Source of the DNA: Escherichia coli
Lineage (GTDB): Bacteria; Pseudomonadota; Gammaproteobacteria; Enterobacterales; Enterobacteriaceae
DNA: 64,000 nt
Strand: one strand, 5' to 3'
Assembly: GCF_965641715.1 (NCBI RefSeq)
Contig: NZ_OZ282453.1
The number at the start of each line of letters is the position of its first letter. Within the stretch, counting starts at the first letter, position 1. Position numbers: made by a program. Below are positions 48,001-51,000 of the stretch, piece by piece.

Positions 48001-51000
48001 AGTACCGTTGCCACGCTCATTGCTACCAATAAGGCGCGAATTTTCATGTTTTTTCTTCCGCACAAGGTCAGGATTATTCTAAAAATGCGCCGTTTGCAGG
48101 TGAACCGACGCTCAGTCTCAGTATAAGGAAAAGCGCAGCGGACGGGCGAGTAGATTGCGCAACATGCGAGCATGATCCAGAGATTTCTGAAGCGGCAAAA
48201 GGATGTTCCATGTACATGACGCGCGGCTTGCGGTAAATTGTTGGCAAATTTTCCGGCGTAGCCCAAAACGCGCTGTCGTCAAGTCGTTAAGGGCGTGCCC
48301 TTCATCATCCGATCTGGAGTCAAAATGTCCTCACGTAAAGAGCTTGCCAATGCTATTCGTGCGCTGAGCATGGACGCAGTACAGAAAGCCAAATCCGGTC
48401 ACCCGGGTGCCCCTATGGGTATGGCTGACATTGCCGAAGTCCTGTGGCGTGATTTCCTGAAACACAACCCGCAGAATCCGTCCTGGGCTGACCGTGACCG
48501 CTTCGTGCTGTCCAACGGCCACGGCTCCATGCTGATCTACAGCCTGCTGCACCTCACCGGTTACGATCTGCCGATGGAAGAACTGAAAAACTTCCGTCAG
48601 CTGCACTCTAAAACTCCGGGCCACCCGGAAGTGGGTTACACCGCTGGTGTGGAAACCACCACCGGTCCGCTGGGGCAGGGTATTGCCAACGCAGTAGGTA
48701 TGGCGATTGCAGAAAAAACGCTGGCGGCGCAGTTTAACCGTCCGGGCCACGACATTGTCGACCACTACACCTACGCCTTCATGGGCGACGGCTGCATGAT
48801 GGAAGGCATCTCCCACGAAGTTTGCTCTCTGGCGGGTACGCTGAAGCTGGGTAAACTGATTGCGTTTTACGATGACAACGGTATCTCTATTGATGGTCAC
48901 GTTGAAGGCTGGTTCACCGACGACACCGCAATGCGTTTCGAAGCTTACGGCTGGCACGTTATTCGCGACATCGACGGTCATGACGCAGCATCCATCAAAC
49001 GCGCAGTAGAAGAAGCGCGCGCAGTGACTGACAAACCGTCCCTGCTGATGTGCAAAACCATCATCGGTTTCGGTTCCCCGAACAAAGCCGGTACCCACGA
49101 CTCCCACGGTGCGCCGCTGGGCGACGCTGAAATTGCCCTGACCCGCGAACAGCTGGGCTGGAAATACGCGCCGTTCGAAATCCCGTCTGAAATCTATGCT
49201 CAGTGGGATGCGAAAGAAGCAGGCCAGGCGAAAGAATCTGCATGGAATGAGAAGTTTGCGGCTTACGCGAAAGCTTATCCGCAGGAAGCAGCTGAATTTA
49301 CCCGCCGTATGAAAGGCGAAATGCCGTCTGACTTCGACGCCAAAGCGAAAGAGTTTATCGCTAAACTGCAGGCTAATCCGGCGAAAATCGCCAGCCGTAA
49401 AGCGTCGCAGAATGCTATCGAAGCGTTCGGCCCGCTGTTGCCGGAATTCCTCGGCGGCTCCGCTGACCTGGCACCGTCTAACCTGACCCTGTGGTCTGGT
49501 TCTAAAGCAATCAACGAAGATGCTGCGGGTAACTACATCCACTACGGTGTTCGCGAGTTCGGTATGACCGCGATTGCTAACGGTATCTCTCTGCACGGTG
49601 GCTTCCTGCCGTACACCTCCACCTTCCTGATGTTTGTCGAATACGCACGTAACGCCGTACGTATGGCTGCGCTGATGAAACAGCGTCAGGTGATGGTTTA
49701 CACCCACGACTCCATCGGTCTGGGCGAAGATGGCCCGACTCACCAGCCGGTAGAGCAGGTTGCTTCTCTGCGCGTGACCCCGAACATGTCTACATGGCGT
49801 CCATGTGACCAGGTTGAATCTGCAGTGGCATGGAAATACGGTGTTGAGCGTCAGGACGGCCCGACCGCGCTTATCCTCTCCCGTCAGAACTTGGCGCAGC
49901 AGGAACGTACTGAAGAGCAGTTGGCAAACATCGCGCGCGGTGGTTATGTGCTGAAAGACTGTGCCGGCCAGCCGGAACTGATCTTCATCGCGACCGGTTC
50001 TGAAGTTGAACTGGCTGTCGCTGCATACGAAAAACTGACTGCCGAAGGCGTGAAAGCGCGCGTGGTTTCCATGCCGTCTACAGACGCATTCGACAAGCAG
50101 GACGCGGCTTACCGTGAGTCTGTACTGCCGAAAGCGGTTACTGCACGCGTTGCGGTGGAAGCGGGTATTGCTGACTACTGGTACAAGTATGTTGGCCTGA
50201 ATGGCGCTATCATCGGTATGACCACCTTCGGTGAGTCAGCTCCGGCAGAGTTGCTGTTCGAAGAGTTCGGCTTCACCGTTGACAACGTTGTTGCGAAAGC
50301 AAAAGCGCTGCTGTAATCAGTAAGACGTTTTGTGAGAAGGGCCGCGAAAGCGGCCCTTTAGATTATTGGTAAAGTGCGCGTTGTTCATGTCGGATGCGGC
50401 GTGAACGCCTTATCCGACCTACAAGATCGTGCAAATTCAATATATTGCAGGAAGTATGTAGGCCTGATAAGCGTAGCGCATCAGGCAGTTTTGCTTTTGC
50501 CATCACTCTCAAGGGCCGCGAAAGCGGCCCTTTTTTTACTTAGTAGAGATAAACGGAACTGTGCTGCCGGGGATCATGGTATTGGGCAGTTTACCGTCCC
50601 AACGTTCGGCAGTGGTGAGGGCTACAAGTCCGGGATTATCTCGCAGAGCTTCACCGCGCAGGCGGATTGCTTCTGCTTCAGCCGCACTTTTTAAACGAAT
50701 AGTTTCAGCCTCTGCCGCGCCTCTTACGCGAATAGTTTCCGCTTCTGCTTTGGCTGCCGCCAGTTTACTGTCTGCTTCTGCCTGGGCCTGAGTTACCGCT
50801 ATTTGCGCCTGGATTTTCTCTGTTTCCAGATTTTGCTTACGCGTGGCAATGGCGACTTCTGCTTTCATTCGGTCTTCAATCGACTTTTCATAAGCGTCAG
50901 AAAAATCAATATTTTCAATCTGGACCCCGTCAATTACCACTGGCCCAACAACGGCTTTGCGCATGGCATTTTGCAGATCCTGAACCAGTTTTGTACGATC

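Follow-up and report, generated by a model that had tools for sequence, protein, structure and literature searches.

A complete BIME-1 element between duplicated copies of a terminator hairpin downstream of tkt in Escherichia coli, with hairpin-length flanking repeats at other BIME-1 sites

The spacer between the transketolase gene tkt and a convergent gene of the SPFH/prohibitin family was analyzed in a 64,000-nucleotide stretch of Escherichia coli DNA (contig NZ_OZ282453.1 of assembly GCF_965641715.1; this whole stretch is referred to as the window), which is 99.9% identical to strain PapM-32-1. The spacer contains a bacterial interspersed mosaic element of type 1 (BIME-1) that has a copy of one and the same 22-nt terminator hairpin on each side. 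Comparison of genomes reveals an element-sized insertion with target duplication and exact boundaries, which recurs at four other BIME-1 sites, and a preference of the element for hairpin feet. We are confident that the target was duplicated when BIME-1 inserted. As an explanation of the locus as a whole we lean towards integration of BIME-1 at the foot of the tkt hairpin, which would have duplicated the hairpin by structure-directed strand transfer. The features concerned, among them the element's repetitive extragenic palindromes (REPs), are as follows (positions in the window; the tkt start was placed using the 1992-nt annotated length of the gene in K-12).

48325-50316, + strand: tkt coding sequence, tktA-type transketolase (NCBIfam TIGR00232, 1099 bits; RefSeq "tkt: transketolase")
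50314-50316, + strand: stop codon TAA of tkt
50337-50358, + strand: hairpin copy 1, the left member of the duplicated pair, with a 9-bp stem, a GAAA loop and no U-run
50359-50510, no strand: complete BIME-1 (RIB/RIP, REPIN-like) of 152 bp; it begins with T, where most relatives have C
50388-50423, no strand: Y-type REP, with inverted-repeat arms 50389-50402 and 50405-50418 and a CTACA tail, placed by alignment to BIME-1 of K-12
50423-50465, + strand: L linker, with an IHF-consensus-like site and a match to Rfam family ES036/CssrF (RF02751)
50457-50487, no strand: Z1-type REP (TGTAGGCCTGATAAGCGTAGCGCATCAGGCA), placed by its sequence and by alignment to other BIME-1 copies
50511-50532, + strand: hairpin copy 2, the right member of the duplicated pair, which together with the T-run at 50531-50537 forms an intrinsic terminator
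50536-51444, - strand: convergent SPFH/prohibitin-family gene of 302 aa, from the list of open reading frames (RefSeq "prohibitin family protein")
50536-50538, - strand: stop codon of the SPFH gene, overlapping the T-run

As the original prediction had described, the exact 22-mer AAGGGCCGCGAAAGCGGCCCTT occurs twice, 174 bp apart from start to start; these are its only occurrences in the window and both have the same + orientation. In 100 dinucleotide-preserving shuffles zero matches to it were expected, even with three mismatches tolerated. Copy 1 starts 20 nt past the tkt stop codon and copy 2 ends 3 nt short of the SPFH stop codon, the BIME-1 site being located between these two stop codons. 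Each copy folds into a stem of 9-10 bp, the loop being GAAA and dG ranging from -18.9 to -20.6 kcal/mol (z from -4.3 to -5.1). The run of seven T follows the second copy only, again as first noted; after copy 1 comes TAGATTATTGG, where relatives have CAGATT. The 9-bp stem of copy 2 includes seven GC pairs, which gives it the layout of an intrinsic terminator, a layout shared by the single ancestral hairpin; the terminator scan called copy 2 only, and copy 1 with its different downstream sequence lacks this layout. Folding the RNA of the interval 50310-50550 paired one half of the element with the other and copy 1 with copy 2 (minimum free energy -102.7 kcal/mol, z -7.3); the RNA of both hairpins and the element between them can thus form a single long hairpin.

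The sequence between the hairpins had been taken for a REP palindrome. REP sequence is indeed present, but rather than one REP there are two inverted REPs, a linker and terminal motifs, and judged by this organization the insert is a complete BIME-1, a member of a dispersed multi-copy family of extragenic elements that occur once per site. Its Y and Z1 REPs stand in opposite orientation and are bounded by outer motifs, the family-consensus ends being CAGATTGTTGACAAAG and TTTGTCATCAGTCTC. The end CAGATTGTTGACAAAG and the reverse complement GAGACTGATGACAAAC have 11 of 16 bases alike, a resemblance that is unspecific since the element is quasi-palindromic throughout. The predicted IHF site ATTCAATATATTG (50435-50447) agrees with WATCAANNNNTTR at 8 of 9 specified positions, and the linker scores 53.5 bits against RF02751 (gathering score 37.6). 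Full-length relatives of the insert (151/152 nt) were found in 5425 of 5426 complete E. coli genomes, the median number of matching places being 30 in each. In K-12 the closest paralogue is the classical element of the fepA-entD spacer (89.5% identity over a full-length alignment). BIME-1 copies in K-12 were located by BLAST with the consensus, the K-12 RefSeq annotation used having no REP or RIP features. Two side observations concern the element itself. The ES036/CssrF "sRNA" family appears to model part of a dispersed repeat, namely the BIME-1 linker. In ST131-type alleles the Z1 REP has lost its GTAG end through a 12-bp deletion within BIME-1 (GCAGG[AAGTATGTAGG]CCTG; compare 50449-50462 of the window); size classes of 282-283 bp and of 294-295 bp are both common.

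The SPFH gene lies beside tkt in about 1814-1830 of the 5426 complete E. coli genomes and is thus a presence/absence polymorphism. Six strains (PK8275, 755, FDAARGOS_497, H9, 181.1, and Z142-4) keep the gene and are without BIME-1. Each of them has exactly one hairpin, identical to copy 1 of the window, in which the left flank of copy 1 is joined to the right flank of copy 2 (TTTTTTTAC...), so that BIME-1 is precisely missing. In a scan of one genome per species with the SPFH protein, Pseudocitrobacter vendiensis and a Pseudocitrobacter metagenome-assembled genome have tkt, the identical 22-mer once, and the SPFH gene, with contiguous flanks; the SPFH protein of both genomes is 84-85% identical. 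The alignment of insert-free genomes that had been proposed as a check therefore gave the single hairpin that it predicted, in E. coli as well as in Pseudocitrobacter, and the arrangement that was to count against a duplication, two hairpins without an insert, was found in none of the genomes compared at the tkt site. The order hairpin, BIME-1, hairpin is present with the same junctions in E. albertii, E. whittamii, Escherichia sp. MOD1, a divergent E. coli and many other E. coli. Among 40 of the 1830 matching genomes there were 10 single, 22 doubled and 8 partial alleles, which puts about a quarter of the SPFH-positive E. coli in the single state; frequencies at this site come from this systematic 40-row sample only, as BLAST coverage merges two half-matches and is unusable for counts.

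These alleles also decide between the two events that had originally been suggested as the origin of the duplication, insertion of the REP element and insertion of the SPFH gene. The first suggestion holds, the empty sites having a single hairpin. Duplication of the terminator by an SPFH gene arriving next to tkt was conceivable for a gene that is itself polymorphic in E. coli, but BIME-1-free genomes of E. coli and Pseudocitrobacter keep this gene together with one hairpin, and the repeats flank BIME-1 and not the gene. The duplication is therefore attributed to the insertion of BIME-1 and not to that of the SPFH gene, a cause that we rejected as having next to no probability. Strains without the SPFH gene, which the proposed comparison was to include, carry a different hairpin: in K-12 and O157:H7 tkt is followed by the unrelated terminator hairpin AAAAAGGTCGCTTCGGCGACCTTTTTT and not by a single copy of AAGGGCCGCGAAAGCGGCCCTT. 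As a separate observation, between the tkt stop codon and a point about 80 bp upstream of cmtB, K-12 and O157:H7 have about 230 bp (locus L003, 2918-3150) that are unrelated to the sequence of the window and include this terminator hairpin of their own; the stretch replaced covers the SPFH gene (50536-51444) and 51445-51740 of the window. The SPFH-bearing form may be the older one to judge from the gene order, since Pseudocitrobacter has the same layout of tkt, hairpin and SPFH gene.

The flanks of BIME-1 were compared at sixteen sites. They came from a scan of metagenomes for the linker-Z1 junction (120 contigs, representing nine distinct sites) and from a consensus scan of K-12 (twelve 50-kb pieces, 2.94-3.54 Mb); sixteen is a small number, and nine of the sites were chosen for a consensus-like linker. 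For each element the 50 nt on the left were locally aligned with the 50 nt on the right, with 240 cross-site pairs as the null (mean score 11.5, maximum 20). Five of the sixteen sites, tkt and four others, scored 56, 46, 34, 31, and 23, and are flanked by a direct repeat of 21-37 bp that holds a whole terminator hairpin. In the contiguous, unselected K-12 sample such a repeat was found at 3 of 9 BIME-1 sites. Clean empty-site alleles with one copy of the repeat each exist for four of the five sites (tkt, yqeA-yqeB, tcdA-mltA, and fbaA-mscS). The four sites other than tkt are described here.

yqeA(arcC)-yqeB: a perfect 28-bp repeat, AGGCCGGGTGGGTAATACCATCCGGCCA, which flanks a 152-bp element in K-12; one copy in the empty allele of strain 472; occupied in 1649 genomes, most of the remaining genomes being 180 bp shorter
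mltA-tcdA: a 21-bp hairpin, GGGTGAGGGGTAACCTCACCC, doubled around the element in K-12 and single in strain VG38-53E1; occupied in 2754 genomes
fbaA-mscS: a 37-bp repeat that includes the fbaA terminator, single in strain WP7-S18-ESBL-09; occupied in 3719 genomes
mscK-rsmS: diverged repeat copies GGGGCGACATTTAGTTGCCCC and GGGGACATTTAGCGGCCCC

The mscK-rsmS site was not accepted as a clean pair; its "empty" allele has one hairpin, but the flanks are too diverged. The flanks of yhaC-rnpB and yqjG-yhaH, which by eye looked like decayed hairpin repeats, were likewise rejected, their scores being inside the cross-site null. The fbaA-mscS site lies outside the window, which stops inside fbaA. In K-12 (locus L217, 29948-30150) its duplicated 37-mer includes the A/T-run, so that each copy is a complete fbaA terminator and the element, which lies upstream of the mscS promoter region, has a full terminator on either side.

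Of the four clean pairs of empty and occupied alleles, three have a repeat that equals the hairpin within +/-1 nt. Repeat lengths of 21, 22, 28, and 37 bp together with their presence at five of sixteen sites mean that the duplication is neither of a fixed short length nor a property of every copy. The elements also abut hairpins more widely: at 9 of the 16 sites (P about 6e-11) a distance of 0-1 nt separates the CAGATT end of BIME-1 from a hairpin's 3' foot, stems of 7 bp or more being counted, and the opposite end adjoins a hairpin at five sites. The null for abutment used 708 hairpins per 450 kb, all of which were conservatively assumed to lie inside the 12% of intergenic sequence; both this null and the hairpin criteria are rough constructions of our own.

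Two further histories of the tkt locus can be weighed against these sites. Two terminators, one of tkt and one of the SPFH gene, could always have been separate and have been equalized by gene conversion, the single-hairpin alleles then being simple deletions. Deletion between 22-bp repeats around a palindrome is plausible, and the copies do differ in some lineages: in E. whittamii copy 2 is AAGAGCCGCAAACGCGGCTCTT, with pairing kept through a compensatory change from G:C to A:T, in E. albertii copy 2 is also altered with pairing kept, and in B2 E. coli the altered copy is copy 1 (loop AAAT). These differences are lineage-specific and derived, however, copy 1 of E. whittamii and E. albertii being the ancestral 22-mer. 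The outgroup is single with contiguous flanks, and the arrangement of repeat, element and repeat with matching empty sites is found at four unrelated loci, so that we give gene conversion hardly any credence. Slightly less improbable, yet still very doubtful, is an origin in two steps, in which BIME-1 inserted without duplication and unequal exchange or slippage then produced a tandem of hairpin and BIME-1 that was later trimmed. Tandem arrays do exist: Escherichia sp. MOD1-EC7003 (locus L008, 3912-4456) has four hairpins and three BIME-1 with a period of 174-176 bp, and one metagenome contig (L199) has at least two tandem units of hairpin and BIME-1. In Pseudomonas fluorescens, tandem REPIN clusters "including the flanking sequences" have been described (PMC3116915). 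Tandem duplication, though, yields the order hairpin, BIME-1, hairpin, BIME-1, and exact deletion of the last element without any remnant would be needed independently at five loci; the arrays are more simply explained by exchange between the two repeats of the doubled state.

Under the explanation by a single insertion, the ancestral locus would have had one GC-rich stem-loop with a T-run as the shared terminator of the convergent genes tkt and SPFH. In an ancestor of Escherichia one 152-bp BIME-1 would have inserted exactly at the foot of this hairpin with duplication of the 22-bp palindrome, the product being a hairpin, BIME-1, and a hairpin with the T-run. Later on, BIME-1 would have been precisely lost, or the polymorphism retained, in part of E. 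coli, and the unit amplified in tandem in some strains. When a tree was computed for the last 1.1 kb of tkt, the alleles of the six single-hairpin E. coli strains fell into one clade inside the doubled Escherichia lineages, and Pseudocitrobacter stood at the root.

For the insertion step itself we tentatively propose structure-directed strand transfer at hairpin feet on both strands. The target being a palindrome, the same hairpin could fold on each DNA strand, and a structure-directed nick and strand transfer might take place 0-3 nt 3' of the stem on both. The 3'-OH of the target would be joined to the 5' end of the element, which is the polarity of HUH/Y1 enzymes such as TnpA-REP/RAYT. With the two joints staggered by the length of the hairpin, fill-in from the 3' ends of the element would copy the hairpin on both sides, and sites with a hairpin on one side would represent the ordinary single-strand outcome. 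TnpA-REP cleaves at the feet of REP hairpins with 5'-phosphotyrosine chemistry (PMC3333891), and by analogy a RAYT may have had a role in BIME-1 insertion. Extended to the family, this becomes a proposal that we rate as nearly evenly balanced, and slightly on the doubtful side: that BIME-1, the REPIN of E. coli, inserts at the feet of GC-rich terminator hairpins and not semi-randomly, and that where both strands are engaged the whole hairpin is duplicated and the element becomes precisely excisable and amplifiable. A symmetric cut at the base of a cruciform was rejected as the sole mechanism, as it misfits the asymmetric 37-bp repeat at fbaA-mscS.

Several results speak against integration by structure-directed strand transfer. 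Transposition of the IS200/IS605 type is single-stranded and makes no duplication (PMC2817692), and a concerted two-strand event would consequently be new. The CC|T cleavage motif reported for TnpA-REP was missing at the junctions examined. At 11 of the 16 BIME-1 sites no significant flanking repeat was found, the scores being within the cross-site null. At fbaA-mscS the repeat is asymmetric (37 bp, consisting of the hairpin and 20 nt on one side), the right junction falls within a microhomology of 8/9 bases between the target (TTGCTTTTG) and the B motif of the element (TTGCGTTTG), and BIME-1 is truncated at this junction, as it is at the right end of the tcdA-mltA element; these three properties fit an annealing-based mechanism better. 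Lastly, the SPFH-side tree conflicts with the tkt-side tree, a sign of recombination, and the distinction between precise loss and a retained ancestral allele within E. coli is blurred by it. A side observation on the same region is that the last 1.1 kb of tkt (49217-50316) diverges by up to 5-5.5% among E. coli strains, compared with 5.9% between E. coli and E. albertii; together with the conflicting trees, this divergence suggests old haplotypes, with recombination in the surroundings of the indel.

The annealing-based alternative that we considered is replicative template switching. On finishing its copy of the palindromic terminator, a nascent strand would leave its template, anneal by microhomology beside a BIME-1 elsewhere, copy that element and return by microhomology upstream of the hairpin, which would thereby be copied twice; a transposase would be unnecessary. 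Besides the microhomology, the truncation exactly within it and the asymmetric repeat at fbaA-mscS, and the right-truncated element at tcdA-mltA, the variable repeat lengths are in its favor, as are the many donor BIME-1 copies that follow a hairpin, often GC-rich, whose ...CCC, CCT or CTT end could pair with the 3' end as it departs. By itself, however, microhomology fails to predict that in three of the four clean cases both boundaries of the repeat fall on the hairpin feet to within 0-1 nt, with the element joined at or close to its canonical ends. Furthermore, the right junctions at tkt and yqeA show no microhomology, and the left end of BIME-1 is intact at nearly all sites. On balance we consider template switching rather unlikely, yet it is the main competitor.

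Integration of BIME-1 at the hairpin foot would have consequences for the transcription unit. From the sequence signals, tkt transcripts probably read through copy 1 and BIME-1 and stop at copy 2, because copy 1 is without a U-run. An insertion of this kind makes two structures out of one terminator, a hairpin without a U-run and a full terminator, and between them in the 3' untranslated region (UTR) lies a structured element carrying a predicted IHF site. Direct repeats that flank a near-palindrome are a classic slippage substrate for precise excision, as with Tn10 and Tn5, and the repeats around BIME-1 would permit both its precise loss and its tandem amplification; precise loss would explain the single-hairpin clade of E. 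coli. The abstract of Bachellier et al. 1997 is said to mention "excisions of a whole BIME-1". The direct repeats render the change reversible and could explain such excisions among strains as well as differences in 3'-UTR regulation. REP and BIME sequences are the most abundant repeats of E. coli. For the question of how they reach new sites in vivo, now forty years old, the exact junctions of filled and empty alleles at four loci and the strong preference for hairpin feet supply a rule that can be tested (a terminator stem-loop serves as the target, the element is joined 0-3 nt 3' of the stem, and what is duplicated is the hairpin). If the proposal for the family is true, REP/BIME transposition would have its first genomic footprint in these repeats, and RAYT assays would have a concrete substrate, a hairpin foot and an element end.

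Some other features of the window were noted along the way. The product of the SPFH gene matched HflC and HflK weakly, under the curated cut-offs of the profile search. A second BIME-1-like element, without the IHF linker, is found at 27073-27222 (- strand) in the yggN-yggL spacer, and in K-12 at 11648-11792 of locus L218; its CAGATT end is 1 nt from the hairpin GGCCAGCATTTGCTGGCC, of which there is no second copy at that place. Further REP clusters, tandem BIME-2-like or atypical, are located at 6187-6485, 30321-30547, 34862-34988, and 47006-47270, the last consisting of three tandem REPs directly downstream of speB. Matches of naRNA4 on REPs of the window were sub-threshold.

BIME-1 and its presence/absence polymorphism are already known, the element having reportedly been described by Gilson 1991, Boccard and Prentki 1993, and Bachellier 1994 and 1997. 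The element of the tkt site resembles the known BIME-1/RIB/RIP in its inverted Y and Z1 REPs, its long L linker with an IHF-type site, its single copy per site, its extragenic position at the 3' end of a transcription unit, and its polymorphism among strains. It differs in that the published descriptions found mention no flanking direct repeats, terminator duplication or abutment to hairpin feet. A literature search for target duplication by BIME or REPIN elements found none described, although older primary BIME papers were beyond reach, so that a prior description is possible. The hairpin-length duplications around BIME-1 thus seem to be new, and their nearest precedents (REPs at palindromes, REPIN clusters, and long duplications in Helicobacter pylori) describe none.

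With the REPIN-RAYT systems (Bertels and Rainey 2011, PMC3116915; Nunvar 2010, PMC2817692; Ton-Hoang 2012, PMC3333891) BIME-1 shares a REP doublet that can fold into one long hairpin, tandem clusters that include flanking sequence, and mobilization presumed to occur through a single-copy HUH/Y1 transposase that cuts at REP hairpin feet. Target preference and duplication have not been reported for them and the published models are single-stranded and free of duplication; a 2026 preprint calls insertion "semi-random" and its mechanism not established. The insertion sequences of the IS200/IS605 family (IS608, ISDra2) similarly use hairpin-dependent HUH chemistry and join their left end 3' to a feature of the single-stranded target, but that feature is a specific tetra- or pentanucleotide and no duplication results, whereas the BIME-1 sites have a hairpin foot and repeats of 21-37 bp, and the clean pairs show duplication at four of them. 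Reviews describe REPs as being without the signatures of miniature inverted-repeat transposable elements (MITEs) (PMC3184786). Bacterial MITEs (Correia/NEMIS, RUP, ERIC) are comparable in being short and non-autonomous, with imperfect terminal inverted repeats, flanking direct repeats, and filled and empty sites; their duplications, however, are of 2-10 bp and fixed by a DDE transposase, while those at BIME-1 are variable and equal the length of the target hairpin. The "insertion with long target duplication" of H. pylori (Nobusato et al. 2000, as presented in PMC1643837) likewise has an unusually long target duplication that was recognized by comparison of two genomes and whose mechanism is unexplained; in the account given there, the inserts are restriction-modification genes, the repeats are much longer, and neither a hairpin target nor a REP is involved. 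Closest in the kind of target are the REPs of other phyla that are "inserted within small palindromes" (Di Nocera 2013, PMC3733652), an association of REPs with palindromic targets that is common to both cases. There the palindrome is split and its parts flank the REP as an inverted repeat, whereas at the BIME-1 sites described here the whole palindrome stands on each side of the element as a direct repeat.

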